Source: Psammoneis japonica
Taxonomy: Eukaryota
Reading direction: 5' to 3'
DNA length: 44,086 nucleotides
Assembly: GCA_008632985.1 (NCBI GenBank)
Contig: QPGO01000230.1
Span: forward strand, 62,001 to 106,086
In this document: positions 16,677-44,086 of the stretch, in pieces
How positions within the stretch are numbered: position 1 is the first letter of the stretch
Layout: each line of letters starts with the position of its first letter
Position numbers and translations under genes: made by a program
The notes under the pieces: model-generated
Databases searched by the model: none
Told to the model about the DNA's origin: nothing
The model's input: the letters and a program-made list of their open reading frames with translations, nothing else

Positions 16677-16949
16677 TCTTCTGTGTTGACAAAAATGACT
16701 TTTTGTTTGAAGAAAGTCCCGCCAGAGTCACATGTTAAATCTGGAAATTTCATGCACGCAAGGGTTGGCCTCCAGTTCAATGTGTCAGTCCTGTGTCCTG
16801 ACCGTGCAGCAAAAAAGTGCAGCACCAAAGATCAAAGCTTGGACATGAACAAATTGACCAGATGCAGGTGTGTGTCTTGCTTTTCCTGCTGCTTTTGTGA
16901 TGCATGGCATGGATGTCTGCTTTCAATGAAAGGGTGGTGAAATTGTTGG

Positions 16950-20727: not shown

Positions 20728-23245
20728 ATGTTCAACAACAAGAAGAATGACTCAGACAGCTCCACTGGTTCTTGGGCAAAGTTTTCCAGCAGCACCAAAT
20801 CGCACACTGCCAGCACTGGCAACAACCGAGAAGAATGTGCAGCATCTGTGCCAGACCCTCCCACTTCTTCCATGCAAGAACCTTGTGCCACCGAAGAAAA
20901 AAAGTGGAAGAAGAACATCAAGAAGGCATTTCCCTTGATCAAGAGGAGGGCTGCTGCAAGGACATCTCCTCCATGTGGTGGGGAACAGGAAGCCACCACC
21001 GCCAACGCAGCTGCGCGTGTTGATGAACAGTGTGCTGATCCTGAAGACTTTTGCATGCCTGGAGCAGACCCAGATGTGGAATCCCTGGATGATGGTGCTG
21101 ATCACTCACCCGGGGTGCACGCCATTCCTGGACCTTATGGTGATGCCACAAGCCATGGATTTTCTGCAAAGGAAGTTTCCATGATGCCATGAGCTGTCGG
21201 GGGCGTTCACCAAGGGCAGGACTTTTCGACCAATCTCGCATCGGCCCATTTGGTGGACACAGAAGAAGAGGCGCACCGGACACAGCAACTTGAAGAGCAG
21301 AGCCGCATCTTGCAGGAGCACGAAGAGAATGTTGCGATTGCAAAAGTTGTTGGCAAGGGCGAAATCCTCAAGAAGTTCTTCAACCTGCGCGATCCCGAGT
21401 TTTGACACCAACAACTTTTCTGCATTGGCGTTCTTGGGCTTGTGGCTGCTGCCATTGCTCTTTCTGTCATTCTCACCCGTGACGACAACCCTGCTGGACT
21501 CGTCCCAGCTGGCACGCCGCCTCCGACTCCAGAGCCCACCACTCCAATCCACAAAGAGTTGAGTGAGCGTCTCTCTCACCTTTCTTTCAACAACGGGGCT
21601 GCACTTTTCAACCAGTCAATGCCTCAGCATCAGGCAGTCAAGTGGCTCGCAAACAGCAGCAACATCTGTGACTACAAACAGATGCAGATCACCCAGCATT
21701 GTGCTTTGGCTGCACTTTGCTTCAGTGCCAACGGACAGAACTGGACGAATGACGATCTGTGGTTAGACGACGGTCCTGAATGTGGACAGTGGTGGCAGGC
21801 CAAGGGAGAGCAATGAATCTTCTGTGTGCAGATCAAGGTGAAGTTTCATCCATCGAGCTCGATGACAATGGTTGCAAAGGAACAACACCTCCGGAGCTTG
21901 TGTTTCTTTTGAATTTGATTGAACGAATCAGCTTTTTGGGGAACGCCATGACAGGCGCAATTCCTGCAGAGCTTGCACTGCTGAGTCTGGTGTTGAATCT
22001 AGATTTCGACAACAACAGATTGAGTGGCACCATCCCTTCCGAGCTTGGACTCCTGACAAATTTGCACTTTCTTGGAATGGTGCAGAATGAATTTATGCAG
22101 GCTCCATTCCAACACAATCATTTCTCTTGATGAATCTGTGCAAGTGTGATTGCTGCGTGTGTGATCTTCTTTTGTGCCAATTGTCCTGCTGATGCCTGGT
22201 TAACGTGCGTTTGAGCAGCGACACTGAGGCTCGGAAGCGGTCTACAAGGCACAATCTCGGCTGATGCAAGCACCCTTTCCAGATGAGAAAGTTTCAACAG
22301 AGGTCACATTGGAGTCATGAAGGTCACTGTTGAGGTGTTGTTCTGTTTCTAACTCTACATGATGACTCATCTTCGTTTCTGATCCGACCAGCCAAATTGG
22401 ACACACACGAGAATAAATTCTCTGGAGCTGTCCCAACCACCATCGGTCTCTTGGCACACTTGACCGACCTTTCGATTTGGTCAAATCAACTGTCTGGAAC
22501 GATCCCATCCACCTTGGGTCTTTTGAACACTTCAGGCAACAGCAGATTTTTTGAATCCTCTGTCAAGCCAATGTCTGCAAGAATCAGCGACTTGGCAATC
22601 ATTCACTTGTTTCTCTTCCTCGAGCACAGTTCATCTGTCCCTTGGCGGCAATCATCTGGTTGGGAACATTCCAAGTGAGATTCAGAATTTGGCAAACTTG
22701 AAAAAGCTGTGGTCACATCACAATCATCTTTCTGGGACAACTCCGTCTGCCATCGGCCTCCATTCTAACTTGGGTGAGTTTTCGCTGTCAGTTTTCCGTG
22801 GTTTGTCACTTTTTAACATGCTTCTCATGGCTGCATTCTTTCACTTCATCTTGTACAGAGGAGCTCAAAATAAATTGAAACAACTTTGCAAGTTCCATTC
22901 CGAGTGACTTTGGCGCCCTGTTGAACATCAAGCTTTTTCTCCTCGGAGCAAACCTTCTCAATCGAACCATCCCTTCGGAACTTGGTCTCCTGACTAACGC
23001 CCAAAGGTTTTCCCTGAATCGAAACTCACTCACTGGCCCTGTCCCAAACAAAATTGGAGAGCTGACGAATTTAACACATCTTTCTCTCTTCAAGAATGAG
23101 TTGACTGGTGCCATTGCACCTGGCATTTACAACATGACCAGCCTTGGAACTCTGTGACCTGACCGGTCCATTCACCTGCCCCGAGGATGTTGAGAGCTGC
23201 AAAATCTCTTGTGAATCCGTTGACGAAGCTTGCCGTGTTCTCTAC
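20728..23245 (+). pseudogene. Membrane-anchored leucine-rich-repeat receptor-like protein pseudogene with introns
   Basis: PGVHAIPG motif, then a hydrophobic segment near 21425-21480. N-cap QHCALAALCFSANGQNWTNDDLWL..EC (QRYALAALYF-type). Repeated plant-type LRRs such as NRLSGTIPSELGLLTNL. Frameshifts, stops and probable introns near 22100-22390, 22530-22625 and 22775-22860. Confidence 0.9.
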
Positions 23246-23981
23246 ATGCAGCTCGGAAGGGTGCGAAGAATTGCGTGTTTTGTGCTTGGTGTGACGAGTC
23301 TGGTGGGGTGCACCTGGGTGAGCTGTGCGGTGCGACATTTTCTGACAGTGCTGTGCCACAGGTGCAAAAGCCTCCGCTTTCGCGCAGCAAGAAGGGCACT
23401 TGGCAACTGCAGATTCTTTTCTTGCTGCACAGGATGATTTGTTTTGTGGAACACACACCTTTGTTGGTTCCTCCTCTTTTAGGTGGAACTCTCTAGATCG
23501 AAGTCTGAAACCGAAAGATTTTGGATTGCCGCCCTCGCTGCTGTCAGAAAATGGAGCCATGACGATTGCCTGCACCAATCATTTTGCTGCATTTTGCGCC
23601 GGGCGTTCGAATTAATTGCAACACATGACGGTCACTTCGGTGCGCACTTTTGCGCGACCCACGCGACATGACTAACGTGCGTCAGTGCGTGGTGCTGGTT
23701 GTTTTGCTTCTGACCGTTCTGTCTTCTGTGAGGTTTCATGAGGCTGTCTGTGCACATTGATGTTGTCTGGTTGTGCATGTTGATGTTGTCTAAGGCAAGC
23801 TGCATTGGATTAAGTGAATGTGGAAATGTACGAAATTTACGCATTGTTGCAGTTTCTTTGCCAAACAGTTGGTCCTCATTTGTGGCCATGCTCAATCCGC
23901 GGCGGCTTGAGTGAAAGTCCATGTGCATGCATTTTGCGTGTTGATGCGGTTGTCTTCACCAAACAGTTGTTTGCAACTTGC

Positions 23982-24383
23982 TCAATTCCATTCTTTCTGG
24001 CCATGCTTCTTCTGAAGGGACTTTGCTTGCTCCTTCTCCTGCTCCGCCATCTCCTCCTTGGTGAAAAATCTCCCCGACCGCTGTGGAATCGCCACTGCAC
24101 ATGCTGCCTTTAGCTCCTCCATGGTTGAATCATCCTTGGGCGCGACTGTTGTTTCCACATGATGACTGTCCACTGTCATGTTGTCTTGCACAAGTGCAGA
24201 AGTGACATCAAAATTTCCCGAAGTGAGGTCAAACGCCGCTCTTGCTTCTTCCAAGGTAATCTCCTCTTCGTCTTCCTTGTTCATCAATGACTGAAGAAGT
24301 TCCGCATGTGTCTGCACCTTTTTCTTGTCCTCACCAGTTTTCTTTGGCTCGTCTGCCTTCTTTGTTTGTTGTTGCAAATCCAT
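23982..24383 (-). CDS. Small charged hypothetical protein downstream of the helicase
   Basis: Open frame with natural E/K-rich composition (MDLQQQTKKADEPKK..EEEITLEEARAAF), same strand as the Rep-helicase. Confidence 0.4.
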   Translation of the reverse strand: MDLQQQTKKADEPKKTGEDKKKVQTHAELLQSLMNKEDEEEITLEEARAAFDLTSGNFDVTSALVQDNMTVDSHHVETTVAPKDDSTMEELKAACAVAIPQRSGRFFTKEEMAEQEKEQAKSLQKKHGQKEWN

Positions 24384-24517
24384 GTTTTCTCTGTTGCTAC
24401 ATTTTCTGTGACGGTTGCGTTCGCGTTTCTTGGTTTGTTGGTTAAAATCCATTCGACGTTGTGTGACGTATGTGTAGATTTCCATGCAATGTGCTGATCT
24501 AATCGAAATGTTTTGTT

Positions 24518-27118
24518 TTACGAAATTTCCGCATTTTTACGGTTGGGGTCGCTGAACAGTTGTACAGTGGTTGAGCATCCCAATCTAATGTTTGCGTGCT
24601 GCACCAACATTTCTGCGCACTGTTGCTGAGAAAAACACGTGGCGCTTCTCTCCTTCATGAGTCTCATCAAGGCTTCGCAGCCTTCTGGGACCTTGCATTT
24701 TCGCAGGTCCTTGCTTGGTGGCTTTCGCATGAACAGCCCTTCTCTGGTCTTTACTCTGGAGAGCACAACACACACCCAATTCTGAGTGTAGCTCCAAGAG
24801 TGTGCAAACAACTGCGGGACTCCACTCCCTTGCAGTTTGTGCCCTGCAGTGGCATTGTTGATGACAAACGGCAGCTGGGTTGCCTTCAGTTGGAAAGTGT
24901 GCCTTTGTTTGTCGCCTTCTTCTAAAGTTAGGCTGGGCTTGGCGATGCAAGCCCTGAAAGTGTTTGTTTTTGGCTCAACTAAAAACTTCGCGGGGTCGAT
25001 GCTTTTGTTGCAGTGTTCCAACACAACATGGTCTGCCTGACTGGCAAGCACAGCAGGAATGCCAATGTTGTTGTCTAAAGTCACTAGTCTTGGTTCCTGT
25101 CCTGGTTTGAGAACGACCTCATCAACAGTGGCTTGCGCTCCGTTTGCTTGACCGTTTGCTGCATTTTCGTTGAAAGGTGTCATGACTCTGCATCCTCTGT
25201 AAATTCGTAAGACTGGATCCATTCTTCCTGATTGCATGATGACGTCTCCTTCACCACAGTTGTTCCAGAAGCTGTTGCAAACCGGAAATGGCTGGCAGAG
25301 TCTCGTGCCATTCTGCACCTGCAAGTCGTCACTGAAAATCAACATTGAGTCAAGGATGTCTCCATCTCTTCTATGCAGTGTTTTTGCTCTTTTTTCGAAT
25401 GGGCCAGTGTCAATTGCATCTCTGTCCTTGTTTGCGTGCGTGGCACAGCGGAGGTCACTGGGCAGATCATCTTTGTTCTGAACTGCTCGTTCGTTGATGT
25501 GCTCTGTGTCGTCAACTGCAATCTCACCAGCGCGGAATCTCTCAAGCAGTTTTCCCCATGATGGATCGTCTTTAAACCTGTGTACACCACGAAGTTCCAT
25601 GTGGCAGTTGATCCACTCGTGAAACTCGGGACACACATCTTTGCACAGTGGTTTCACTCCTTTTCCGACTGGTTCTAGTTGCCTGAGGTCACCTGCGAAA
25701 ACAATGTTCATGCCACCGTGCAGCTTGCTTGATTCACTCTTCAACACTGTCAAATTCTCATGGAGTTTTTCTAGTTCTCTCTTGCTTGTAAAAGAAATCT
25801 CGTCTGCCACCAAAAGTCTCGTGTCTGACCATGCTTCAATTTGCTCTTGGGTCATTTGCTTTCTTCTCATGAGGCATGCAACTCGGTGGATTGTGCCCCC
25901 TTTGAGAATGGTGGCAGCCACTCCGGTCAGTGCAGTCACTCTGATTGTGCTTGTTGTGAACGGCTGCTCAATGAGCGAGCAATGCTCTCTTCTGCACTCC
26001 ACGACGAGGTCTGTTGTGGTTGATTTGCCACTTCCACCTGCACCATGTAAAAAACACACAAGTTGCAACGTTCCACGTCTTTGCACTTCCACGAGTTTCT
26101 TCAATCGGCAAAGGTTTGTTGCGAATCCGTGTCTGCTGTTTCTCCTGTTAAGTCCATTGCGTGACGTCTCGTCTTGAAGAGCATCTTGACAGCAAGTGAG
26201 CACAAAGGTTCCTGCTAGAATTTCAAAGGCACGCTGCTGTTGCCCATCCAGTCTTGCTTTCCCAGCCCAGTCTACGGTGCTTGCTGCAGATCCGTTTGCT
26301 TGACGTACATCGACGTGTTCTTCCAAACCTGTCATGTCCTCAAACGACCTTCTTGTTCTTTGCGTTCTAGTCAGTGTCACTCGAACAATGTCGTCTCTTG
26401 ACAGTGGTCTGCTGTGGATGTGTTGTTGCACTCCTTCATTCTGGTCTTCCTCGTCGGTGTCATCGCCGCCCTCTAGATTCTCAAAAAGTTGTCGTTCATT
26501 AACCTGGCTTTCCTTGTTTGGTGGGTCAGTGTGCATGTCTGCCAAGCATTTGCAACCACCCATGTGTGAACCTTTCTGTCTTGCACGTTTGCCACTCAAA
26601 TGCGCAGGAACAACTGCTTGGTCGCTCAACCCAATGTCATCGTCTTCTGGCTGCTCTGCCATTTCTTCCAAGAGTGCATCCAGCAGTTGACCCTGAACGG
26701 CGCCTGAAAGACCTTCTTCCTCATCACTTTCGCAACAGTCAAACGCAACGTCAGCAGGTCTAAATTGCTCTGTCTTTCTTTGCAGATCGTCAGATGCACT
26801 TTTGAGACGAAGGCAGTTGGACTTGGCATCCTGCAGGTTCTGCAAGAAGTTCAAGTTTTCCTCTGTGACAACACCGGCCACTGCGGAGAGTTGGAATTCA
26901 TGCAGGTGTGTGTGGGTTGTTGGTTTGAGTTCCGTCATTGTTCTGCAAGGCGCAAACAAGGCCAATGCCAACTTGCAGCACAATTCTTTGTCTGGTGTTG
27001 TTGGTTGCTGCGGATTCATGAGGCAACTGCCAAACTTGGCTGCATCAGGAAAATCACACTGAAGCACTTTTTGACAATCGCGGTTGCTGTCGCTGTCTGA
27101 CACCTTGAAGAAACTCAT
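24518..27118 (-). pseudogene. Helitron Pif1-family (SF1B) helicase region
   Basis: Walker A GAGGSGKS, TALTGVAA, Walker B DEISF, GGMNIVFAGDLRQLEPV, HRFKDDP, GHKLQG, WVCVVLSRV. Only 2 Tyr in 866 aa. Confidence 0.93.
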
Positions 27119-27169
27119 TCTTTGTTGAATTGCAAGACGGGTGCCTGTGCGCTCTGTTGTCGAACATCA

Positions 27170-29384
27170 TCATGCCGTGTTCGTTTTTCCTTGTGTTGCG
27201 AAGAACTTCGCACTCACTAAAAAACGCAAACGGACTGAGATTCTCCAGTGCTGTTGGACGACATGGGTGTGGTGCAAGGCCTGGCATTGGAAGAACGGTG
27301 TGTCGCCAAAATGGGCCACAGTCGCAGACACTTCATCTCTTTCTAGTGTGCTGACAATGTCTTTCAAGGGGCACCATGCGGTCAAATGAGATTCGATGAA
27401 ACGGCTTCCGTTCCTTGTCATGTAAGATGCAAGTGGTGGTCCAATGACGTTCGTCTTGTTGTGCGAGCAAGCACCCCATGTGAGACGTCTGATTGCTTCC
27501 GATGCATCAGATGCATGTTTCCGTAATTCCGTCGCCATCCTGTTCGTAGTTCGAAGCACTTCGTCGTACGATGCAGCATCATCTTTCTTGGTGTCTTTTA
27601 GGATGCACTCAATCGTGTGTTGAGCAGACGGTCCAGGCATCAACAAAGCAATGTTTGTGTTGCATGTCAGTTTTGATCTGCTTGTTGCAGGGCACGACAC
27701 GTTTTGAAAAGCATCGCACTTTCTCCTCTTCGGAACAACTTCCTTCATGCACCGACACGTGAAAGTCCCATCCCAGCTGAACCACTTTATCTGAGTGTCA
27801 TCTGCGTTCCTCACCAAATTATTTGGACACAAAGCAGCTGGTTGCCTGTGACGGCAGTCACCCAGTTTGAGCTCCTCTCGTTTCCTTTTCCTTGACAGCG
27901 TGTCCAGTTCCTCGTGTGGGGTTTTTTTATGCATTTTACGTAACTCTGTGCATTTGGGAAAACACGACTTCGTAACGTGCATGTGATGGTTGTAAGCTGC
28001 GTCCGGCATGTGTGCCTCCATTGTCCCTTGCGGACCACTTCGCTGGCATTGTACACACATTGCTTTTAGTCGCTTTGCATGGCCATCTGGATGGCGAGTC
28101 AGGCCAGGTGCACGGTGCCGTGACTGCAAAAAGCTTTCTACAAACTCGACGTTTGTCCAGCACTTGGTGCAGTGACGACAACAAGCAAACATTCCGTTCT
28201 TCGACTGCTGGCCGTCTTCATGCCTCAGGTTTCTTAGCTGTTGGTCGTCTGCTGCTTTTGGAGAGGTGCGATGCATTTTTGGCACTGTGCAGTCATGATC
28301 GAATGCTTCGCGCAACGCGTTAGTGCTGAAGTCCTCGCTGCAGATTAATTCCGTGCTGCAGATCTTCTGAACTGTGTTGGTGAGGTGCTCAGCACCTTCG
28401 CGTCGGATCTGTCTCATTGGCGAATGCAGTTTCTCTCTTGCATTGTTGATCGATGCGAACCAGATCTGCATGTGTCCGTGTGCTGTCAGACGTCCCTGCT
28501 CCTCAACTGCGGCTAAAAATGCGGCTGGCCTGCCAATGCAGAAGTTAAAGTTTTCTCTTGGTTGGTTGGCACTCAGATCCCAACCCACTGCCTCTTCCAT
28601 TGCAATGTCAAACAAGCACTCGAATGCAAAGGCTGTTAGACCGGGAAACTTTAGACGCAGTTCATTACGTTGCTCAGCCCTGCTGGCAAGAATTTCGTCC
28701 ATCAGTTGTGTCACGTCTTCGTTTGGGTCCAGGATGACACCCGAGTGCAGTTGCACAAGAAACGAATTTGCATCGTCCGGACTGACGGTTAAGAAAATGC
28801 CACCCTGACCAAAATGATGCTGATTGAGTTTCGGCGTTTCTCCTCATTTTCTTTGCTGCTTCGTTGCTGTGTGGCAGAGACGCAGATGCAACGTCGAGTG
28901 CACGCAAAAAGTGGTGCCCGAGTCCATGATCTCTTCTCTCGCCCAAGTTGCGATCACAAACAGCTCCATCCACATCGTCCACTGTCAGTTCGTTTGCAAA
29001 CTGTGCAGCCTGATTCTTGTCCCTGACTTTCCACCCTGCGCTCTGCAGCATCCTTTGCTTCATTGTCAAGTTGCAGCACATTAACACGAAGAGCTGCTCG
29101 TGGAAGTGAGGCTGGGAAATCCGTGCCAAGTGGTCGGCACAGTGTGCAAGGTTGGTGCTGTCTGTAAGACTTCCGTCTTTCTTCATTCTCGTCTCATTGA
29201 TTCCTCCTCTGCCAAAAGGAAACTGCAGCAGACACGCGCCAATGAAGTTGTTGCCTTTGAAATCACTCGCAGATTCTTTAGACAACTGTGCTTGCACCTC
29301 TAAATCAAATCCATTGGCAGCAGCTTCGTGTGCAAGATCTTTGAAGCAGTCCAGGTTGCGCTGACCACCGGTCGCAGGAGACAT
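27170..29384 (-). pseudogene. Helitron Rep (HUH endonuclease) region, frameshifted
   Basis: LLQFPFGRGG; motif 1 FGQGGIFLTVSPDD (about 28770-28813); HUH motif VEEQGRLTAHGHMQIW; motif 3 equivalent QHTIECILK (Y-x-x-x-Y-x-x-K after restoring Tyr). Confidence 0.88.
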
Positions 29385-29399
29385 GGTTCCATCAGGAAA

Positions 29400-30331
29400 G
29401 CAAGTGTGAAATGACTCTGAGGTCTCAATGTTCGCATTTTCTCCTTCTTCTTAGCTGGTGCTGTCGACAAGTGCGGGATTCCGCAGATTGCGCCTGACTT
29501 TGTCTAGATTTGTCTGTTGGCACACCCACTCTTGGTTTGGTGCAACAGCCATTCCATCGCCCTCAGCATGCAGTGCATCCTAATTCTGTTCTTTGAACGC
29601 GCAAGTTGTCTTTGCTCCGGAGTCATCTTTCCAGTCATCAGTGCAATCACATTCTGATGTAAATTCAGGCATCGAAGTGCACAACAATTCTTACGATGCT
29701 TTGCTCTTGACTTTGTAGTGTGTCAGACTTCCCTGAAGCTTCTTCTGTTTGCTGCCAAGGTGGCTGAAGCAGTGCCCGCATGTTTTCACTGGCGTGAGCA
29801 TTGCCAACTCTACTTTGGTTGGAGACAACAGTTTGTGCGGCGGGGTGCCGAAACAGTGGTTGTTCGCTATCGCGTGCGTTGGCACAACGGCTCTTCCCAG
29901 GCTTCTTCGGCATTCGCTGCAGCAAGTGAATCCGTTGACGCGTCGTCTGTCTTCCTGCACTGCGCATTGGGCGCGGGGAGAAAGCAGCAGGTCTTTGATC
30001 CAATCAGCATCTTCATGCTCTGCAGCGCAGCAGGACTTGAGACGATCAGATGTGCTGTTCCAGTCTGAAGGGGTGAGCAAGTTTCTTGCTGACTCCAATG
30101 TTTCAAGCAGCAAGCAGCAAACTTCTCCAGGTTTCAGCAGAACGTCACAGACTGAACACACGTGTGGTCTAAATTCTCCGTCTCCACGCAGATGCAGCAT
30201 CTCAAACTTTCCATTGATTGCACTGCAAACACGGGAGTTGGCCTCGTCCATCTTAATTTAAGCTGATGCTCCAACTCAACAAATTTCAAGAAGTTGCTCA
30301 GTGAAAACAGTTGTTTTTTCAGTGCGATCAC
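29400..30331 (-). pseudogene. N-terminal part of the Helitron Rep-helicase (Cys-rich, DUF6570-like)
   Basis: CSVCD..CCSECRRSL..PTHAIANNHCFGTPP..TKVELAML resembles the N-terminal domain typical of Helitron Rep-helicases. Confidence 0.7.
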
Positions 30332-30337
30332 CGTGAA

Positions 30338-30994
30338 GCTGTGATCGGTGCCATCCGATCACCACAGCGATGTGTGTTTTCTCACCACCTGGCCAGGTGC
30401 TGAGCACTGCGACTGGTGTCGTCCAGTCATCGCAGTGGTTCTGTCCAGTTGATCAACGAACTGCGTCGGTGCCATCCGTTCACCACTGCGCTGTGTCGTC
30501 TTCTCACAACCTGTGCAATCAGGTTGCTGTGAGAGCTGCGACTGGTGTCGTCCAGTCACCGCAGCCAGTAAGTTGCTTGACGAACTGCGTTGGTGCCATC
30601 CAATCACCGCAGCGTTGTGTCGTGTTCTCACAACCTGTGTGATCAGGTCTCTGTGAGAGCTGCAACTGGTGTCGTCCAGTCACCGCAGCTGAGCTTGTGC
30701 GTCATCTCACAACCTGCGTTGCGAGGTGCAGCGCTGTGTTGTTTGCTCACAACCTGTGCAATCAGGTCGCTGTGCAGCCAAGTGAACCAGTTGCTTGACG
30801 AACTGTGTCGGTGCCACCTGATCACCGCAGCGATGTGTCATGTTCTCACAACCTGTGTGATCAGGTCACTGTGAGAGCTGCGACTGGTGTCGTCCAGTCA
30901 CCGCAGCTGAGCTTGTGCGTCATCTCACAACCTGCATCACTGGGTCACTGTGAGAACTGAGAACTGCGATCGGTGTGGCCCAATCACCGTAGTT
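30338..30994. repeat. Array of about 16 hairpin units in three sequence classes with one shared geometry
   Basis: A: gctgtg-atcgg-tgccat-ccgat-cac-cacagc (30338). B: gctgcg-actgg-tgtcgt-ccagt-cac-cgcagc (30877). C: tctcaca-acctg-tgtgat-caggt-cac-tgtgaga (30844). Confidence 0.85.
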
Positions 30995-31148
30995 GGATGC
31001 TTTTCGTTTCCCTTTGCGCAAAGGTTCTGTCACAAAAAAGTGAGACGAAAGTGTGCCTCTTTCACCTCGATGGAAGAGTGACGTGTGCGTTCCTCCCACG
31101 TCCTTCTTCGTGCCAGACGTGCGATGTCCTGCTCAGTTTCGTTGACGT

Positions 31149-31258
31149 TGAACATCCCATGGGATGAGATTTGGATCTTGTTCAAGTTGTTTCGGCCATC
31201 TGCTCTGAACATTCCATGGGGCAAGATTCGGATCTTGTTCAAGTTGTTTCGGCAATCT
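31149..31258. repeat. Two-copy tandem repeat, period 57 bp
   Basis: tgaacat.ccatggg..agatt.ggatcttgttcaagttgtttcggc occurs at 31149 and 31206. Confidence 0.85.
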
Positions 31259-31794
31259 TGGTGGTGGGTGCAGCTTCATGCAAATTCTGCAGAATTGCGC
31301 TTTAACGAGTTGCGGGGCAGCCGAGTCAGTCGTGTGGCAACAACAGTGCGATTGACGTCATTCGGGTTTCCAAAGTGCGCGCAAATCCTCCAAATGGGTG
31401 ATGGACCCACCTCAGCCAACTGCCGGCACAGCAGTGACAGCGATGGCGTCAACCATTTGGCGACCACATTTCGTGCGCGATGGCCGCGCGGCAGCAACGG
31501 CTGAAATGCACACAAAGCACGGACGGAATTGCACGTGATTTTGCGCATTTTCAGCAAACTCACTGCGACTTTGCGTGCTCTGATCCTTGCATCTGTTTTG
31601 TTCAAATTGAATCCATGCACCACTTGCAAGTGCTGACACCTGGAAGGTTGCCTTGTTGCAGTTCGATGTGTTTGGATCTAGTTGCTGACGTTGCCAGTTC
31701 TCCTTGGCATGATGTGCGCAGCTCTGCTGGGTCTTTCTTGGCACTTCTGAACGATCGCACTTTTTGTTCCCACAATTTCTCTCCAACTGATTCG

Positions 31795-32661
31795 ATGGCA
31801 TGCAAAAGAAACACAACGACCTCCCCGGCTGCGAAAGTTGCCGAAACCAAACAGAAGAAGGCAAAGACGAAGTTTTCTGATGCTCTGTTGAAGAAACTAA
31901 GTCTGCCCCGCAAGACCAACGGCTTGACCAACGACGACCTTAAACCGGAAGACTGCCTTGCCAAGCACGGGTTCAAGCTTTCCAAATCCGCCGGTTCTGA
32001 CGATGGCAGCCATTCTGATGAGGACGCCCTCCTGCGCTGCGCCACCGTCACCGTCTGCCGCAAGAAAGGTGTCGTTTTTCGTCTCCAAGCCAAGAATCCC
32101 CTTTTGGCCAATGTTTGGTTGGAGAAGGTTCTGTTTGACAACCTTCGCAGCAGGACTCCGTGGGCGGTTCAAGTCGGATTCCACCCTTGCGCTGGCAGGT
32201 GGGTTCACGAAGGCGAGTTGCAGATGAACGCCAAGAACTGCGCCGTGCGTCTCTTCTTCATCTTCCTCGAAGAAGTCCCAACCGATGCCAAAGTGCACGG
32301 CCTCAGGAAGTGCATTGCAAAGCAGCTCAACGATGACCCTGAGAACAACACCGAGGTCTTTGTTGAAGACAACTTCTTCTGGATGAAGGATGCTGTTTGG
32401 TCCGAAATGATCGGCAACGAGGCGGCGCTTGCCAAGCTTCAGAAGGAAGGTGGTCAGTTTCACATCGGTTGGTGCGCCCAAAACAAGAACTTGCTTCACA
32501 GTTGCTTCTACAAGAGGTCGTTGCCTGTGGAACTCTGTTGTCTCATTAGAGCTCCGGCAGAAGAAGCTGGAGAAGAGGCCGACGATGATGTCGAGCTCAA
32601 CTGCGAAGTTGACCTGAACGTCGATGACGACTTGGTGCTTCATGACAGTGACGAAGACTGA
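31795..32661 (+). CDS. Hypothetical protein of about 288 aa with a basic N-terminus and acidic tail; hypermutated
   Basis: Uninterrupted frame with strong third-position C/G bias, a K-rich N-terminus (KQKKAKTK) and a D/E tail. No domain recognised. Confidence 0.7.
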   Translation: MACKRNTTTSPAAKVAETKQKKAKTKFSDALLKKLSLPRKTNGLTNDDLKPEDCLAKHGFKLSKSAGSDDGSHSDEDALLRCATVTVCRKKGVVFRLQAKNPLLANVWLEKVLFDNLRSRTPWAVQVGFHPCAGRWVHEGELQMNAKNCAVRLFFIFLEEVPTDAKVHGLRKCIAKQLNDDPENNTEVFVEDNFFWMKDAVWSEMIGNEAALAKLQKEGGQFHIGWCAQNKNLLHSCFYKRSLPVELCCLIRAPAEEAGEEADDDVELNCEVDLNVDDDLVLHDSDED

Positions 32662-32933
32662 GTTGTTTTTTTTTTGCCGGTGCAGTGCAAATTTGCAAAT
32701 GTTCAGCAAACCAAGTGTCGATTGCAACTCAGCTTTCCTCTGTCTCTTCAAGCATGTGCCATCTCCGACAACAACTTGTCGTCACCGCGAAGCAATGGCG
32801 AATTGAGCAGAGCAACTAGCGTGTGACGTCCAGTGCAGTGACAGCAAAAAAACAGTTCAGTTGAGTTCTCAAGCAAAATTGGCTGTTTTGCGATGGGCAA
32901 ATGCTTCCGTTCCAAGTGTGTCGGAGTGGGACG

Positions 32934-33800
32934 TCACATGTGCTGGCTGGTTGACTGAGAAGTCTCCTCTTTCTTGGTGTGCTTGTGGAAGACGAGATGT
33001 TTCACATCTCCGCTGTGCCACAAAAAGTCGCCATCATGGTGATCCACCGTGAAGGACTTGCACATCCACTCTCCCACGCACGACGCGAACAGCAGATCTA
33101 GCGCCACCACCACAGTCCCATCACAACACAACTTTGAAAGCATCGCCTCTGCCTTCTGCTGTGTGTTCTTGTCGTCGACCATGCGGGAGTTGCAGTTGTT
33201 GAAGAACACCTTGAGTCCTTTCTTTTTCCACAAAGGAGCCAGGCTCTCGTCCAAAAATGACTTGTTGATCAACTCTGACCCACCGTTTGAGCGAAGGCCA
33301 GCATGATGAGCCCAACGCACAGCCTCTTGGTGACAATCGTGGTTGGCCTTGATGCTCACCACGGTGCAACGGCGACGAAGTAACTTGAGCCCGATGCTGG
33401 GTCCGGCAACTCCCCTGCCCATGTCGACAGATGTGTCGCAGGTGTGATTCACGCCAAGAAGGCGTTCGTTCAAAAACACTTCACTGCTCAAAACGAAGCC
33501 AACTTCGCCGCCGTGTGAAGATCTGCTTCCGTCTCCGGAGACATGCCTGCTCTGGAACGTGGAGTCCGGAGCCGTTTGAAGATGAAACTCCCTGACACTT
33601 CTGTGACGATGGTTCATCGCACCCAACTTTGCAGCAACATCAACCTTGCTTGCAGCGGGTTCGACCAGATGTCGCGTTTCCAAACCAAACTGTGGCATGT
33701 GCAGAATGCGTAAATTTGCCGTCGCGCCCTCTGTGCACGCGAAATTTTCAAACGCGGCGTGCTGCCTCCACCTGCGCATGGAGCGATGTGTGAAGTCATT
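32934..33800 (-). pseudogene. DOT1-like class I SAM-dependent methyltransferase (putative histone H3K79 family)
   Basis: Motifs in DOT1 order: SSHGGEV (YGE), DTSVDMGRGVAG (DxGxG), VVSIKAN, INKSFLD, KVFFNNCN (vFvNN), LSKL..GTVVVAL, FLW..VFHKHTK. Lies within ORF 32934..34304; true start uncertain. Confidence 0.6.
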
Positions 33801-34620
33801 CAAACAGATGTGCAGATGCATTGATTTAATGAGACGCCTCCAGGCGATAAAATTTGTTTTGAATCTCGGCCTGCTTCTCATCGTTGCCGTGCTTGTACAT
33901 CTGTGTGATTCGAACGCACGAGCTGGCACGACACGTGACGCACTTCTGCACGAGAACTCGTGCTGAGATTGCCGTGGGATGATCCTCCCTCCGCGGACAC
34001 AAAAACAACGCGACAACACTTCCGTCATCATTTTGAAACACATTTCAAATTGAGACACACCATGTCGCAACTGCCTCGTGCCTCGCTGCGTCATCCTGCC
34101 AACCACAAGCACTTGTCGCGATTGAGTTACAATCGGTCTCGACAGTGTGGGGGTTTGGGACGTGCAGCTCGCAGCCCGACAACAAGCAAACACTTCTCGC
34201 GATTGGGTTTCAACCCCACTCCCGATGCGTTCCAGACACAGGTGGGAATCCGTGTGACATTGGGCCCCGTAGACTTCCACGTGCGAGCTCCGCAGTAAAA
34301 TCACACGGCAATTAAAATGTCAATGATCGCCAACAGAAAATGAGGCAATTTTGCGAACGCACAAACTCGCACATGATTGAAGCACATCATTTTTTACTCA
34401 GCCAGTTACATTCTTCAGACATTGAAGAATGTAACTGGTGCATTGTTGTTTCTGTGAATTTGTCACACAAAACGTCTGGGGGCTTCGCAAAACAGCGAGT
34501 CTGGACAATTTTTTTTAAATGTCACATGTAGAAATCTACGTGCGAAACATGTGACGGATGACAAAAATTGTTGTTGTCACACGCCAGCACTGTGAGCTCC
34601 CACCCAGGGCTGGAATGCGT

Positions 34621-34780
34621 CTCCCCTGGAGTCCACCGGTCCCTGTCAACAGAGTTTTGCTTTGGGTGCTGTTGAGGCAATGGAAAGCAGACACATCTCT
34701 TGATTGGGTTTTGACCCCACTCCCCTGGAGTCCGCCGGTCCCTGTCGACAGAGTTCTGCTTTGGGCACTGTTGAGACAAC
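34621..34780. repeat. Two copies of a roughly 60-bp direct repeat, period 99 bp
   Basis: ctcccctggagtcc.ccggtccctgtc.acagagtt.tgctttggg..ctgttgag occurs at 34621 and 34720. Confidence 0.85.
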
Positions 34781-35840
34781 AGCGACAGTGTCGAGTGGTG
34801 GAACATTTGCCGGCAAGTTCGCACACACGTTCTCTGTGAACACCGCATCGTCCATGCACACCAGGACACACGAGAACGTGTTGAGGGCTCATCCGCCATC
34901 CAAGATTGCTCGCCTCGTTCCACTCGCGCCGTGCGCCACCAATAGTCTCTCCACACACCACGTAGCCAACCGCACTCTAGCTCATGACGGCGACTACACT
35001 CAGCCTGCACCACCTTGTCTTGCTGACATTGACTTTGCCGAATTGGCTCCTCTGGTTGTCTGTGACCCTGTGCTCGATCTGAAGCCTTTCTTTGGCTTGG
35101 ACGGTTGCCGCTGTGACAACACCTGCACCCTGCTGCCGCGTTCTGCTGTGGTGTTCAGCTCCCCCAACCCAGCAGAACTAGTTGCTCAGTGCCGGGCACT
35201 TGAAGCACTGGAAGGCTGCACTGCCCAGTCCACCGTGCACGGCAAACAACGCGTTACCTTCATGGAGACGAACAGGAGCAAGCATTCCACGATTGGCCTG
35301 GCTGCCACGAGAGATGCTCAAATTTCTTGCAAGCAGCCTGGCATGGCCGACCAACACACTCACCACCTCACCAGACTTCTTTCACGCATGGAGCACCTTG
35401 TCAACGAGCACGTGGACTGTGCCATCCTCAAGGGCATCTCTCGTGTCAAAAAGTTTCACAACTGGAAATCCCTGGCACAGTCAGATGGCATTTTCTCCTC
35501 TCTGGCGGCTGGGCACAATGTCTTCCTCAACGCCCATCGGGACCAGGACTTCTTCCTGTCAGTGGTCACCGTGGTGGGAGTCCCTCTGTCCGGCAGCCAC
35601 ACCATGAATGACGGGATTGTGGTGCACTTCTGCTTCCCTGCCGAAGGCATCTCCATTGCACTCCGGCTTGGTGATGTCATAATTTTTAACCCCACCAAGC
35701 ACCACTGCATCTCCAGCAGGACAAACTCAAACGACGAGTTCTTCTGCGTGTCTCTCCACCTGAAGAGTGCTGCAGCAGGCAAGAATGACAATTCAATCCC
35801 CCTTTCTCTAGAGGAAGAGACCATTCTCAGGCGACTGTGA
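34704..35840 (+). pseudogene. 2-oxoglutarate/Fe(II) dioxygenase, TET/JBP-like
   Basis: NVFLNAHRDQDF (HxD), FCFPAEGISIALRLGDVIIFNPTKHHCISSR (distal His), VSLHLKS. The frame is open but has 1 Tyr in 378 aa. Confidence 0.65.
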
Positions 35841-36128
35841 CAGCACAAAATAATTTGCTAAATTTGCGTAAATTTGCTGACTTTCTGTGCTCAGGCAACC
35901 ATGCTGGTGCCAACTGGTTCACTGGATTTGCGCAAATTTGCCGACTTTCTGTTCTTCCTCGTTCCCATTTTTTGAACGACAACTGGGGCTACGCCTTTCC
36001 AACTGATGCTGCAGTTTCGCTGAAAAACACCAACACACTGTGCTGCTAATTTACAGAGCACACTGCACGGCAAATGTTTTGCCAGACGCAGAGCTTCTCT
36101 CCCCCGACTTGGGGAGTAGACGCGATTT

Positions 36129-37484
36129 CTAATTCCGATTCATGGCTCCCAACGTTGCCTTCCTCTTCTTCTTCTTCTTCTCCGATTCATCCAAGTTGCA
36201 TCTGGAGAGAAATTCCTCCCCGGGCATGATTCGCTTCGTGACTGCCAAGCACCCGTTGTTGTAGAACTCGCAGTTGTTGTCTGCCTGTTGGCTTGCCTTG
36301 ATCTTCTTCTTGTCCTTGAACGACTCGGTGGCATCATTCACGCAGTGCATTCCGAGGCAGAGTGGATGGGAATTCTTGTTCCCTGGACCGCTAAAATCAA
36401 GCGGTTTTGGCTCCACTGTGACGCAGTGGCCCTCGCTGTCATGGATGGTGGAGCAGCACACGCTGTGGTCTTCTCCAAACTTGCTGTCGTGGTTGCACCA
36501 CAAGTGGCTCCTCGTTGCACCGGGCACCCTGGGGCCCACATGGATTCCAACCGCACTGCCTTTCTGGAACTGGCGCAAAGCAAAAAAACCAATGCCTGCG
36601 CCCCTCCGTTCCTCCTTGGGGCCTGCGGAGCGAGCGGACTTTTCGAGGCAAAACAACGCAGGTTGAAGTGGCGCGGCGCCTCATCCAAATGTGCACACTT
36701 CTGCACTTGCTCTCTTCACGAGGTGGACCAGTGCGAGCGACCACCCCGCTTTGAAAGCCTCGACGGCGGTCTTGAACACTTTGTTGCTCTTCGGCGTCGA
36801 GTCTGGGATGCCCCTCTCGCCGACTTCCGTGTGGCACCTCCACACCCACTTGCAGTGTTCGCCGTGAGCATTCGCGACGGCTTCAGGGTCGCTCCTGATG
36901 CACCCCAGTTCTCCCAGCGCGGGGAACCAGAGGTCGGGATCATTCGGCACATCCTTCATCAGGCACATGGACTCCTGGAAATTGTCGGATTTTTCGTGCC
37001 GCCACACCCAGTCCCACAAGTCGAATGACGGCTCGTTGGGGTCCGGAAATTGCTTTCCTTCTTCTTCCTCTTCCGCCGTTGCTTTTGCAACCACTTTGGC
37101 CGTGGGCTTGGCTGCCTCCTCGCTTTTGCCACTGCAAAAAGGTGGGACCTCCGGTTTCACAAAGGTGGCCTGATCACCCACCAACTCGATCTTGCAACCA
37201 GCCTTGAGGAGCTGCTCGGCGGTGTGACCCAGCTGCTGTGCTTCTTTCCAACCACAAATTTGAAAGGTTGGCTCCGGCGGCACGGCTTTCTCCCCATTTT
37301 CAGTTTGGGACTGCGCCGGCTTCTCCGACATCCTTGCGCATTCGGACTTGACGGACACACCCTCGGCGCCAAGTGCAGTCATGGCAGCTGCCGCCGCGCC
37401 TTCAGCGCCCGTGAGTTCTGCCATGACTTCCAGAGCTGCTGCATCCTCTGCTTTGCCAGACACAACGATGTTGTCCTCTGCCAT
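36129..37484 (-). pseudogene. SET-domain lysine methyltransferase with a long N-terminal extension and one in-frame stop
   Basis: GAGIGFFALRQFQKGSAVGIHVG, LGMHCVND, NNCEF..AVTKRIMPGEEFLSRCN. ORFs 36681..37733 and 36129..36656 are in the same frame, separated by TGA at 36681-36683. Poly-Lys C-terminus. Confidence 0.75.
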
Positions 37485-38775
37485 TCTGGCGCCATGATGA
37501 CAGAGCTGCACTGACTGCTGTGTGGTGTGCTGCTTTGTTCCAGCCATTGGCGATCCACATCCTTCTGCGCACGTAAATGTGCAACACTTCGCACCAAATT
37601 CCACGTGCCCTGACACACCCTGCAATGCCTGCCGCGTGCTTCCAAGTTCCTCAACGCACCGCCTCCAGACGTGGCGCGTCTGCACCTGTCTACATCCGTC
37701 TTCACTGCTGTGCGCACTGCGGTGATGCAGCACACCCCATCAAAGCTTCATTGATGTTTGTTTTTTCCTTCCTTTTCCTTTTCTCTTCTTCTTCCATCTG
37801 GCTGGGAGGAACTGCTGGATAGCCTGGGCATGAGATCTTTCATGTCCATGCACAAAAAGTTGCACTGCATGTGCACGGGGAAATTTCAATGGCTGAGGAT
37901 CTCAGGTGGGTCTCAATGTGTGACAGACTCTGCCAGCAGCTTCTAGAAAGGGTGGGGAATGCAAGTCGAACGTCAAAATCAAACAGGATGCGAAGGTGAA
38001 CATCAACCATCATCGCCATTTGACATCAGCGTGTGGAATTGGGGAGGCCTCATAACTGCATCAACTGCTGCACAGTGCAAAAATCTGTTGTTTTGCAGTG
38101 GAGCTCTCTGCGGAGCTCTCCATGAAAAGTGACGAAAACAGAAACGACGGCATCAAAGCATGCAACAACATCACAAGCGCTGCGACCGCCATCGTAGTCC
38201 AGTGACATGCACATGGAACAAGTGACATGCCAACAAAGATTGCTGTCTTGTGCTTTAAGTCTTTCTGCATCTGTTGGAAAAGTTTCAAAGAGTGTTTCAA
38301 AATTTGAAACGCGCCAACATCAAAAGTTGACAGAAATTGGTCGCGTGGGACAACATTGCCTCCAGAGAGCCATCAAAAGATGGCGCTCAAGCTTTTTCCC
38401 ATTTTCAGGATAGATCGCCATCCCAAAAAAAAGAAAAAGGGGGGACGCACTGCGGAGACAGCAAGAAAACTTGCGAGTCAACCGCGTTCTAAATCAACAC
38501 TCCCTGCAAGTGAAGACTTGCCGCATCATGTCAATGACATGACAGAACCCCAAACCTGTGTTCTGTCAATGGCATGATCTGCTTGGCGAGCTTTTGCTGC
38601 TTCACAGATGAACGCTGCTGTCTGTTTCAACAGCCGTGACCTGACGGGTCAAGCAAACAGGCAACTTCCTGCGCTCAAAGACACTGGAGTGACGTGGACT
38701 CAAGGCTGGAGAGACGCACTCGATTTGCCCCAACCTCCGGACTCAACTGGCAACACCTGCGCCGCCGATTGAGAA

Positions 38776-39067
38776 AACACGCCATCAAGCAAAATGATTT
38801 GTGGAGTTCCAAACAAGAGCGAGCAATCTATTCCAGAAGAAGGGCAAGCCATCCTCGGCGATCGCGGCATCAGTTGCTTGGCAAACAACAAACACATCGT
38901 GCGAGACGACGAGTTTTAAAAGAGAGACAACACGCCATCAAGCAAAACGAGTTGTGGAACACCAAACAAGAGAAGGCAATTAGAGCCAGAGGATGGGCGA
39001 GCCATCCTTGGGTGTTGCCGCATTCCGGCTTGGCAAACAACAAACACATCGTGCAAGATGACGAGTT
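38776..39067. repeat. Two-copy diverged tandem repeat, period about 153 bp
   Basis: aacacgccatcaagcaaaa ... gcttggcaaacaacaaacacatcgtgc ... gacgagtt begins at 38776 and again at 38929. Confidence 0.85.
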
Positions 39068-39271
39068 GTGAGCGAAAGAAGAGTGCGAAACCAAGAGATT
39101 TTGTTTGTGTCGTGACCGTTGCCAAATTTCTCAAGCACTGTCAATTTTGCGCAAACGTGTAGAATGAATGCCATGATTTTGCATGTGGGACACACGCCAG
39201 GACTTGGCACTTTCAAAATTGTCACCAATTCCTTCGCACACTTCACGGCAACCGTCCAAACGCAAAAAAAC

Positions 39272-39750
39272 TGCTGACTCCATGACGTCTTCGTTGTCGA
39301 GGTCCAAGCTCCTGCTCCATTCATTTGCCTCACAGGTCTCTGCAGAGCAACACTTGACGCTGACTTGAGCCCCACACAGCACACTCTCAACTCCTTGTTT
39401 GTCATGGCTTTCAAGTTGACAGTGGATGGGTCCTGCCGTTGCTGTCCATGTGCTCTTCCAAGCAGCAGCAGCATCAAGTTGTTTGTGGTTTCAAGAAAAT
39501 GGTGGATCCAAAACATGTTGTCCCCCTGGAAAAGCCCTGCGTGTGCTTTGATCCCGAATTTCTCCCGGATTCCACTGCAGACGCCTTTCACGAGGATCTT
39601 CTCAACAACGTGAAGTGGGAAAAGACAGCCAAAATCAATCGATGGGTCAGTCTTCATCACACAAAGGATTTGGAAGATTGTCAGCACCGCGATGCACCAG
39701 GAGCTGCCCATGTCGGATTCAACTCCACCATTGAGAGCATTCAAAAAAGG
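39272..39750 (+). pseudogene. Truncated 5' fragment of an AlkB-family (ALKBH2/3-like) dioxygenase gene
   Basis: VCFDPEFLPDSTADAFHEDLLNNVKWEKTAKINRWVSLH..CQHRDAPG resembles the AlkB N-terminal part after restoring Tyr. It ends before any HxD motif. Confidence 0.55.
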
Positions 39751-42543: not shown

Positions 42544-44086
42544 TCAATTATCTTCATCGTCGACAGCTTCCATGTGAATCGCTTGATACATTTCTGGACT
42601 CACGTTGACGTATTGATTCATGTATGCCAACTGACTCTTGATGTTTTCGCGGAGTTCGTCGCGTGCCAACTTTTCGATTATCACAATGCTTGGAAGATTG
42701 TTTGTGGTCCGTATAACATTCACATTGAGAAGCCGAAAACGCCCACTGAGTTTGCGGACGATCCGAGTGATTTGCAAGCCCCTCAAAACAAGCAGGACAA
42801 CTCGACCACCTGGTTTCAAGGTGTACCAAGAATTTCGTAAAAATATCTCATAAAGAGTCTTGAGATCCGAGACGCTGTTCTTTTGACCCGTTTGAACTCC
42901 CCAAGGCAAGTTGCTAATGATGGCATCCACCGACTCGTCTTCCACATGCCTCCGCAAACCCCGAGCATCCGAACAGACAAACTTGCAAATTTCGGGACCG
43001 CATCCCTCGGCAAGAGCATTGTCCCTGGCACCATCCGCACTCCGTTTGGACACATCCATTCCAATACAAAAGACTTTCTTTTGGAAGATTTCCATTGCTT
43101 CCAATAAGAGGGTCCCGCTTCCGCAAAACGGGTCCATAATTGTATGGCCAGGTTGTACATTCCCCAGACGGACCAGTGCGTAGGCAATATTGGTCTTGAC
43201 GGTGACTACATTGCGATATGCTAAAAAGTGTCGATCTTTGCTCAAGTCGGCAACGTTGAGTTGCGTCCCCACGATGATTCGGTAGCCTACAATTTCAATG
43301 CGAATGGAAACGTCGTAATCCTCCATCTTTGGTCGAACCTTGCGGTCTTCATAGTATTCAGCCAGGGCTCCACCCATTTCCATCTCTACTTGGGGACTCT
43401 GAAAGGCATGTGGCCCTCCAATTCGTTCGCAAGTAGCCCGAAAGGTTCCCCCGCCACTTTCGGCCAGCTGCTCCAGAGAAGACACAACTACGGTCTTTTG
43501 GACGAGGTGGTCCTTGAAATACTCGTAAAGGGTTTCAGCGTCAACAAGCTTGGGGTTGGAAATGTTTCATTGCAACAGGCCTCCAACTGGAAATCCATGT
43601 GATAGTCTAAAACGTGAATGGCGGACTTTAGGCCCAAGAGTAGCTTGATCGTTGACGCAAGTTCGTCAGAGTGGCTTGCCTCAAAGTCAGCCTTGGAAGA
43701 TCCCCCACAGCAACAGGCCACAAAGCCATCCATTCCTACTGGCCGCGCAATAACTCGCCACAAGCTATTCAAGTTCTCATTGGCTGTCAATACCTCTTCA
43801 ATCTCGGCGCCACAGTATCGTTCCGCTCCAAGATTGGTCTTTATCAAAAAGTAGATATTAGGAAAGTCCTCATCGAGATCTCCCACACTGACGGTATCTC
43901 CAAATATACCGCCACTATCAGGATTACCAAAGACGTTGGATCCCTCGGTGGTTGCCGACCATGCATTCGCATTGGGTTCCGCACCGTCGGTAATGCTGGA
44001 GAGCCAGTCATCTCGTCGTTCGTGCTCGTGTTCCCCCTCTGTTTTGAAATTCTTGCATCGAAACGTCAGATTGATGCGTCCAGTCT
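42544..44086 (-). CDS. Host gene (5' end outside the window): AlkB-type C-terminus, THUMP domain and SAM-dependent RNA methyltransferase (UPF0020/Trm14/THUMPD3-like); apparent 1-nt indel at 43552-43555
   Basis: TFRATCERIGGPHAFQS (THUMP), IMDPFCGSGTLLLEA and ISNLPWG. The upstream frame stays open to the window edge and reads GRINLTFR. One extra C in the CCCC run joins the frames as FPTPKLVDAETLYEYFK. Normal TpA and Tyr content. Confidence 0.88.

Follow-up and report, generated by a model that had tools for sequence, protein, structure and literature searches.

In a 44,086-nucleotide stretch of the Psammoneis japonica genome (assembly GCA_008632985.1, contig QPGO01000230.1, positions 62,001 to 106,086 of the forward strand), hereafter the window, whose own numbering is used throughout, we characterized a tandem array of same-shaped hairpins that lies just upstream of the Rep/Hel gene of a Helitron, the element being assigned to this group by the fusion of an HUH Rep domain to a PIF1-like helicase. 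The array spans positions 30338–30993 and consists of 14 clear units in three classes (five A, four B and five C) as well as two degenerate C units. It is real and more than chance, and it is best explained as a minisatellite that is non-coding, restricted to its lineage and placed in the control region of a Helitron that probably carries several genes. As to what the hairpins do, we propose, with somewhat less than even confidence, that they may be stem-loops recognised by a protein on single-stranded nucleic acid, more likely DNA than RNA.

Geometry and covariation of the hairpin array

An earlier note on this DNA, made from the sequence letters, had described three interleaved hairpin classes of one geometry, and this description held up in a systematic search. 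Each unit has an outer stem of 6–7 bp, an inner stem of 5 bp, a 6-nt loop of the form TG...T and a 3-nt bulge that is mostly CAC. A fixed scan of the whole window for this architecture (an outer stem of 6 bp, an inner stem of 5 bp, a loop of 6 nt and, on the 3' arm, a bulge of 3 nt) returned nine places when no mismatch was allowed, eight of which fell within 30300–31000, while 10 of 28 places were in the array region with up to one mismatch and 13 of 239 with up to two. Read in register, the 154 stem positions of the 14 clear units comprise 136 Watson-Crick pairs, five G.T pairs, seven A.C pairs, three other mismatches and three unpaired positions, and all 11 pairs are Watson-Crick in 7 of the 14. 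The loop differs by class (TGCCAT in A, TGTCGT in B, TGCAAT or TGTGAT in C), and 10 of the 14 units have CAC as their bulge. The array amounts to about five repeats of roughly 124 bp, each arranged as A, 12–13 nt, C, 0–1 nt, B and 16–23 nt, and Tandem Repeats Finder (TRF) reported a period of 124 with 2.8 copies at 30345–30689; the order of roughly A-C-B, the period near 125 bp and the unit spacings that are not all multiples of 3 had thus been read correctly beforehand. Superimposed on this is a recent duplication larger than the basic unit, of 147 bp, in which 30571–30717 and 30789–30935 are 94% identical. The units are as follows, with the three lines of start positions read in register.

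A units start at 30338, 30460, 30584, 30802 and 30963
B units start at 30406, 30535, 30659 and 30877
C units start at 30503, 30627, 30746, 30845 and 30924
30338–30368, A1: GCTGTG/ATCGG/TGCCAT/CCGAT/CAC/CACAGC; 11 of 11 pairs Watson-Crick
30381–30404, C1: degenerate C-like unit with a 4-nt loop, no bulge and one C.C mismatch
30406–30436, B1: bulge CAT, all pairs Watson-Crick, seventh pair C-G at 30405/30437
30460–30489, A2: 3' outer arm spoiled in the window copy
30503–30533, C2: CTCACA/ACCTG/TGCAAT/CAGGT/TGC/TGTGAG
30535–30565, B2: GCTGCG/ACTGG/TGTCGT/CCAGT/CAC/CGCAGC
30584–30613, A3: inner stem ttgg/ccaa (both CpGs decayed, compensating); 4-nt bulge, because one base of the 5' arm is missing
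30627–30657, C3: bulge CTC, loop TGTGAT
30659–30689, B3: one A.C mismatch
30706–30742, C-prime: degenerate C-like unit, the 5' half of a C unit joined to other sequence; different fold
30746–30776, C4: bulge CGC; outer stem with two mismatches
30802–30831, A4: decayed, with A.C, T.G and G.T and one base missing
30845–30875, C5: all pairs Watson-Crick
30877–30907, B4: all pairs Watson-Crick; top covariance-model score, 46.6 bits
30924–30954, C6: two G.T pairs, altered loop
30963–30993, A5, the last unit: G.T and C.A

The ttgg/ccaa variant and the G.T pair of the last unit, both pointed out earlier, correspond to A3 and A5, respectively.

Since the units are paralogues and represent only about three independent lineages, one clean representative of each class was compared (A1, B2 and C5) over 31 positions. 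A1 and B2 differ at eight positions, all by transitions, with three pairs changed on both arms and two differences in the loop; the 16 differences between B2 and C5 include seven pairs changed on both arms, and the 18 between A1 and C5 include eight. In none of the three comparisons is a stem pair changed on one side only, and random placement of the same numbers of differences (8, 16 and 18) equalled the observed outcome in 167, 8 and 1 of 200,000 trials, respectively. The columns that are invariant or nearly so across classes are the loop-closing G-C pair, the TG of the loop, the base that follows the 3' arm of the inner stem, and bases 1 and 3 of the bulge, and the T that ends the loop is also kept. 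Several of the between-class changes are not CpG changes, among them T-A to C-G at position 2 of the inner stem and the transversions that set C apart from A and B. Stems that covary freely around a conserved loop and bulge are characteristic of a hairpin that is read by its shape and its unpaired bases, and neither three palindromes of separate origin nor double-stranded sites with symmetric halves would readily produce them; furthermore, the bulge renders the palindrome asymmetric, which agrees better with a hairpin than with a double-stranded site, which would be symmetric.

In a MAFFT alignment of all 14 clear units, paired bases occupied 90.9% of 164 cells, against 71.8 ± 2.2% after shuffling (0 of 500 shuffles reached the observed value) and 27–36% when the stem partners were slid, and 10 of 12 pairs showed change on both sides; these pairing counts are slightly too low, as one G was put in the wrong column in three A units. 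A covariance model was then derived from the same 14 units, a check that had been proposed in the earlier note, and scored them at 29.6–46.6 bits and the next match in the window at 13.6 bits (E 0.4). The folding of each unit as single-stranded DNA (ssDNA), likewise proposed there, bore out the shape in part: the minimum-energy fold had exactly this shape in 7 of 16 units (−8.5 to −10.9 kcal/mol, z −2.4 to −4.5) and was close to it in three (A3, C4 and C6), while six folded otherwise (A2, A4, A5, B3, C1 and the unit at 30706). The array as a whole folds better than its dinucleotide shuffles on either strand (z −4.8 for plus, −8.45 for minus), and six of ten units tested on the Rep-sense strand as RNA adopted the bulged shape at −14 to −17.2 kcal/mol.

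Searches against known structured RNAs and other collections returned nothing of note. No match over the window reached the gathering threshold of any Rfam 15 model, those for iron-responsive elements (IRE) and micro-RNAs included, and a local E-value search yielded five rows, all at chance level (E 1.9–8.4; micro-RNA rows 5.7 and 8.4). No tRNA or tmRNA was found in the window, and a pattern search with the B hairpin gave 0 matches in a viral contig collection and 0 in a genome contig collection. A search for the spliced-leader motif of dinoflagellates, allowing up to 3 mismatches, likewise gave 0 matches.

The host Helitron, its putative control region and its copies

The array lies in a gap between two divergent genes, whose pieces and surroundings are listed here.

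24518–27166, minus strand: helicase piece (PIF1, E 4e-14), in the same frame as the Rep domain piece, the in-frame stop 27167–27169 standing between them
27170–28843, minus strand: Rep (HUH) domain piece, HGH motif kept
28674–29450, minus strand: Rep/Hel piece in another frame, 48% identical to residues 283–495 of protein P0004
29691–30251, minus strand: N-terminal Rep/Hel piece with ATG at 30251, zinc-finger-like, weak DUF6570 match, 43% identical to residues 7–187 of P0004
30252–31479: gap of 1228 bp between Rep/Hel and the accessory gene, containing the array and a 57-bp repeat
31149–31258: second tandem repeat, 57 bp in 1.9 copies, 88% alike, with small internal palindromes, closer to the accessory gene
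31480–32661, plus strand: accessory open reading frame (ORF) of 393 residues, pointing away from Rep/Hel

The Rep/Hel pieces are 43–48% identical to metagenome proteins of about 1900 residues that carry DUF6570 (PF20209), Helitron_like_N (PF14214) and PIF1 (PF05970). In the window copy itself, Pfam recognised PIF1 at E 4.1e-14 and Helitron_like_N at E 0.0035, the latter short of the Pfam cut-off, and no endonuclease domain. Residue 10 of the N-terminal frame aligns to residue 7 of P0004, a full-length homologue, and due to this alignment we take the Rep/Hel start to be the ATG at 30251 and the array to be non-coding. The array then lies 87–743 nt upstream of this minus-strand ATG, in agreement with its earlier placement upstream of a Helitron Rep, and forms head-to-tail repeats between the Rep ATG and the accessory gene, with a period that is not a multiple of 3; its 14 clear units are all 5' of the Rep start and more than 5.7 kb upstream of the Rep/Hel stop. 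The reading frame is broken by the in-frame stop at 27167–27169 and by two shifts of frame, one near 28700 and one between 29450 and 29691, and a His and a Cys (about 27605–27619) replace two tyrosines that hardly vary among 24 relatives. Judged from these lesions, the Rep/Hel copy in the window is a pseudogene and a dead member of its family. A by-eye search for the element ends (5' TC; 3' hairpin and CTRR) at the edges of the CpG-richer block described below assigned no terminal motif.

Run X1 is the one public DNA run in which the stretch was found (28% of sampled words), and its short contigs were compared with positions 23500–32500 at no less than 80% likeness; two further runs of the same sample gave no contigs there. 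In total 2493 contigs of X1 were placed, 666 of them at ≥99%, 797 at 95–99%, 789 at 90–95% and 241 below 90%, and they covered all 30 bins of the interval, which implies many diverged copies of an element that extends past both ends of it. Transitions made up 203 of the 210 differences tallied between copies, and 8 of 40 rows among the differences listed were adjacent CA/TG swaps, as would arise if one ancestral CpG had decayed on opposite strands. Across the window the observed-to-expected CpG ratio is 0.05–0.3, versus 0.5–1.1 in a block of about 18.7 kb (about 21000–39700) around the Helitron genes, and TG plus CA reach 1.3–1.9 times expectation in every 2-kb stretch except the short last one. 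This pattern resembles what strong methylation of CpGs would do to an insertion of recent date.

Within the array, contigs differ by indels of 1, 9, 1 and 3 nt, including 1- and 9-nt deletions in C1, and two larger rearrangements were each seen in single contigs only: a form that lacks 67 nt (30271–30337) and a form that joins 30391 to 30660. At A2, all seven contigs placed there have G at 30485 and A at 30487, giving CGCAG and restoring the pairing that is spoiled in the window; as the two restoring bases are present in 7 of 7 contigs, the family consensus has the A2 hairpin. The loop of C3 is TGCGAT in three contigs.

The accessory gene on the other side of the gap belongs to a family with 203 clusters at E ≤0.001. 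Among 80 related metagenome loci, which encode Rep at 24–46% identity, its profile was found upstream of Rep and on the opposite strand in seven (L003, L007, L009, L012, L023, L024 and L029), for example at 840–1823 in L003, 5112–6275 in L009 and 278–1351 in L007 (minus in locus coordinates). The protein matched no Pfam family and no PDB sequence, and had no usable Atlas match. Its structural model has a mean pLDDT of 69.7, with a disordered N-terminal half and confident prediction only for residues 180–370, i.e., the C-terminal domain. Fold comparison gave a best E of 0.023 with Foldseek and a best Z of 5.2 with VIA-align (below the usual chance level), and no fold was assigned, an outcome that does not show the fold to be new.

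Other features were noted in and around the element. A 378-residue ORF at 34704–35840 on the plus strand, without a Pfam family, has relatives (29–39% identity) in the distant Helitron loci L037, L038, L042 and L045 and is a candidate for an additional gene of such elements. The CpG-richer block also contains short tandem duplications at 38771–39067 (about 150 bp, 81%) and 34621–34779 (about 100 bp, 90%), and a 324-bp tandem duplication, 98.8% identical, is situated in the CpG-poor flanking DNA at 16032–16677. The ORF on the minus strand at 42544–43566 has no introns and contains THUMP-like and RlmKL-type methyltransferase domains (UPF0020, E 8.7e-27); it probably belongs to the host.

Possible roles of the array

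In the role we propose, the repeat unit would hold three related stem-loops (A, C and B) descended from one ancestral hairpin, and the active element would have kept their shape, from the lower stem and 3-nt bulge to the 5-bp upper stem and 6-nt loop. With the letters of loop and bulge near-fixed and the stems altered by paired substitutions, each hairpin may be read in single-stranded form through its unpaired bases and its shape. The strand would most likely be DNA, exposed by unwinding in rolling-circle transposition or when the divergent promoters open, and the reader would most likely be encoded by the element itself, as Rep/Hel or as the accessory protein. The many tandem copies would raise occupancy, and the effect of binding might be control of the Rep/Hel and accessory genes or a step in transposition or strand handling. 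We infer all four parts of this account, namely the selected shape, the DNA strand, the binding of a protein and the effect of that binding. The non-coding position between two genes and 87 nt from the Rep ATG, together with the gene pairing that is kept in seven of 80 loci, counts in its favour. DNA is preferred to RNA because the Rep leader would contain eight upstream ATGs, because G.U is not favoured over A.C, and because the Helitron life cycle exposes one DNA strand, as described in the portions of two reports drawn on here (PMC5714925, PMC13085455). The mismatches themselves (five G.T versus seven A.C) show no strand bias, and the folds of the two strands do not separate them.

A narrower version, suggested by analogy and in our estimate quite unlikely, is that the hairpins could be cis signals whose action is confined to the displaced single strand, as a loading, pausing or second-strand priming site read by Rep/Hel or the accessory protein and comparable to the single-strand origin of a plasmid or to a viral region bound by Rep; if this were true, they would be the first internal ssDNA element described for a Helitron. 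The known requirements of Helitrons are limited to their terminal sequences and a single 3' hairpin, and to our knowledge both the control of their genes and the handling of the displaced strand are poorly understood. If the array binds a protein, it would represent a type of cis element new to the rolling-circle transposons of eukaryotes, and if it binds none, it would be one more lineage-specific minisatellite inside a Helitron. An array with a conserved loop and bulge and covarying stems is a concrete and cheaply testable case in a many-copy family.

Several observations weigh against recognition of the hairpins by a protein. The covariation signal is effectively carried by only about three independent lineages (A, B and C), and recent changes within classes are mostly uncompensated in the window copy (15 imperfect pairs: five G.T, seven A.C and three other), which is what neutral decay after the death of the copy predicts. 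Two within-class cases are compensated, A3 (ttgg/ccaa) and A1 (GCTGTG/CACAGC), but both are at CpGs and are weak evidence, since paired CpGs that decay independently of each other will be complementary again in half of the cases by chance alone. The distance from the array to any end of the element is 1.5 kb or more, given that run X1 contigs still cover positions up to 32500, and no similar hairpin exists elsewhere in the window, so that nothing links the units to the terminal sequences on which Rep acts. The related loci point the same way. The hairpin architecture gave two background matches in the 565,000 bases of the 80 loci, both strands searched, and the covariance model gave no significant match there (best 14.5 bits, E 2.9). 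For the 1 kb upstream of Rep, the 24 of 80 loci with about 930 nt or more of such sequence had 0–2 hairpins each, like their shuffles, whereas the window had seven against 0–3 in shuffles. The absence of the hairpins from all 80 relatives implies that this kind of element does not need the array in general. In addition, the same gap in relatives holds unrelated tandem repeats (175 bp twice in L023, 64–70 bp twice in L003, 77 bp twice in L009 and 33/66 bp in L007), which fit plain promoter-region repeats. The earlier claim that structure rather than sequence is conserved was borne out within the array, where no between-class stem difference is one-sided, but did not extend to related loci. From these comparisons, the array is peculiar to one lineage and arose at a site where repeats tend to develop in this clade. 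Isolated small palindromes are also present in the gaps of relatives.

Those same repeats in the gaps of relatives, together with the second, 57-bp repeat in the window's own gap, are among the reasons to consider a promoter-region minisatellite without any hairpin function, which we regard as a serious contender, if a somewhat unlikely one. The repeats would then be duplicated promoter or enhancer modules or products of slippage, the palindromes would be double-stranded binding sites or the outcome of template-switch correction, and the common shape would be inherited rather than selected. The retention of the hairpins in 0 of 80 relatives, a possible variation in unit number, suggested by the single contigs that lack 67 nt or join 30391 to 30660, and the mostly uncompensated changes within classes are all in line with this, as is the mutation pattern, because with 203 of 210 differences being transitions and many being CA/TG swaps, palindromic CpGs can seem to covary by chance. 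Such chance does not readily account for the fact that 0 of the 8, 16 and 18 between-class differences are one-sided, several of them not being CpG changes. Moreover, template-switch correction should erase the 3-nt bulge, yet it persists in all three classes, and sequence-specific double-stranded sites should keep the letters of their stems instead of covarying.

Recognition of the hairpins in RNA is, in our view, unlikely, though it deserves attention due to the position of the array, which ends 87 nt before the Rep ATG (about 20 nt in the contig without 30271–30337), and to the good folding of the Rep-sense strand as RNA reported above (array z −8.45; six of ten units). Transcription would have to start upstream of the array, so as to place the hairpins in the 5' untranslated region, where they would bind a protein or slow scanning; on this strand each would present a lower stem, a 5'-arm bulge, a 5-bp upper stem and a 6-nt loop, a geometry that, we presume, resembles IRE or TAR. 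Such a leader would contain eight Rep-sense ATGs within the array and nine more farther upstream, G.U is not favoured over A.C on either strand (5 versus 7), and no Rfam family matched, IRE models included (best local E 1.9–8.4). The earlier suggestion of small-RNA precursors, whether micro-RNA-like or small interfering RNA hairpins, fared worse: many tandem hairpins in a high-copy transposon would suit such a source, but their stems are just 11–12 bp and interrupted by a bulge, Dicer-type processing needs duplexes of roughly 20 bp and the micro-RNA rows were at chance level, making this very improbable.

The least probable idea is that the array encodes a peptide repeat in frame, whether at the N-terminus of Rep/Hel or in another protein, and the earlier note had itself named such a repeat among the findings that would overturn its reading. 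Open frames of 90, 90 and 94 residues do run over parts of the array on both strands, and in-frame repeats exist inside the Rep ORF of distant relatives. The period of 124 is not a multiple of 3, however, contigs carry indels of 1, 9, 1 and 3 nt inside the array, and the alignment of the Rep N-terminus with homologous proteins begins at the ATG at 30251, with the array lying upstream of it; a 90-residue frame across the array had no relatives among proteins of 49–158 residues. On these four grounds a coding tandem repeat is refuted for the window element. As for the distant relatives (24–32% Rep identity), tandem repeats of 69 bp were seen in L044 (1710–1969), L050 (1945–2237), L059 (363–1070), L065 (351–700) and about a dozen more, and in the four loci checked they are in-frame repeats of 23 residues, in up to 10 copies, in the N-terminal part of the Rep/Hel ORF. 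They are a different thing from the hairpin array.

Comparison with known systems

The array is a Helitron-internal tandem repeat, and thus of a known kind, with an unusual structural signature. In the literature searched, which consisted mostly of titles and the beginnings of abstracts and is weak evidence for that reason, no array of same-shaped covarying hairpins was described inside a Helitron. A close likeness is to the Helitrons of Paramecium, in which several satellites lie between the left terminal sequence and the ORF, one of them, ‘Mosaic’, being composed of 11 different segments of about 44 nt, according to the parts of that report drawn on here (PMC13085455). In both cases tandem arrays are found 5' of the ORF in an autonomous Helitron, with several short unit types in mixed order, and a further likeness is that the Paramecium satellites are missing in more distant copies; the excerpts also state that their length differs between copies (PMC13085455). 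These excerpts do not, however, describe the Paramecium satellites as same-shaped hairpins with covarying stems, and report compensatory changes only for the single stem-loop of the right terminus (PMC13085455); the window array, in addition, lies between two divergent genes. Helentrons and their non-autonomous derivatives, among them DINE-1/HINE elements and the satellite-like arrays of oyster, are also rolling-circle transposons with internal tandem repeats and short palindromes, as far as the sections consulted show (PMC4067079, PMC7492417), but in the former the palindromes are single and subterminal and the central repeats are not reported there as structured (PMC4067079). The window Rep/Hel also differs from Helentrons in that Pfam found no endonuclease domain in it.

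The hairpin at the 3' terminus of Helitrons is similarly a short, G+C-rich stem-loop, presumably recognised by its structure once the strand is displaced, and work on Helraiser is said to have found that the structure of this hairpin matters, not its sequence. The terminal hairpin is single and lies a short distance ahead of the 3' end, with CTRR after it, in the available part of the Paramecium report (PMC13085455). The array is unlike it in that it has at least 14 copies, is internal, lies 5' of Rep and has a conserved bulge.

Outside eukaryotes, a parallel may be drawn with REP/BIME sequences, which are bacterial and extragenic, usually alternate in orientation and carry a conserved tetranucleotide beside the hairpin. 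Like the array, they are clustered short imperfect palindromes of few classes and are associated with an HUH enzyme (the Y1 transposases) that reads ssDNA hairpins, going by the abstract-level account in PMC3333891. The parallel would be one of function, and no homology is expected. In geminiviruses and circoviruses, an HUH Rep gene and a divergent gene flank a gap with repeated Rep-binding elements and hairpins, and the window resembles these ssDNA viruses in having an HUH Rep and a divergent gene around a gap with repeated elements and hairpins. Rolling-circle plasmids, for their part, use structured single-strand origins (sso/ssi) to prime the second strand, as summarized in the portion of PMC5714925 used here. 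The window hairpins differ in being repeated 14 times with differing stems, and neither a nick site of the nonanucleotide type nor an iteron pattern or a role as origin was seen here. The resemblances of the array to REP/BIME sequences, to the regions of ssDNA viruses, to plasmid origins and to IRE or TAR would be functional analogies.

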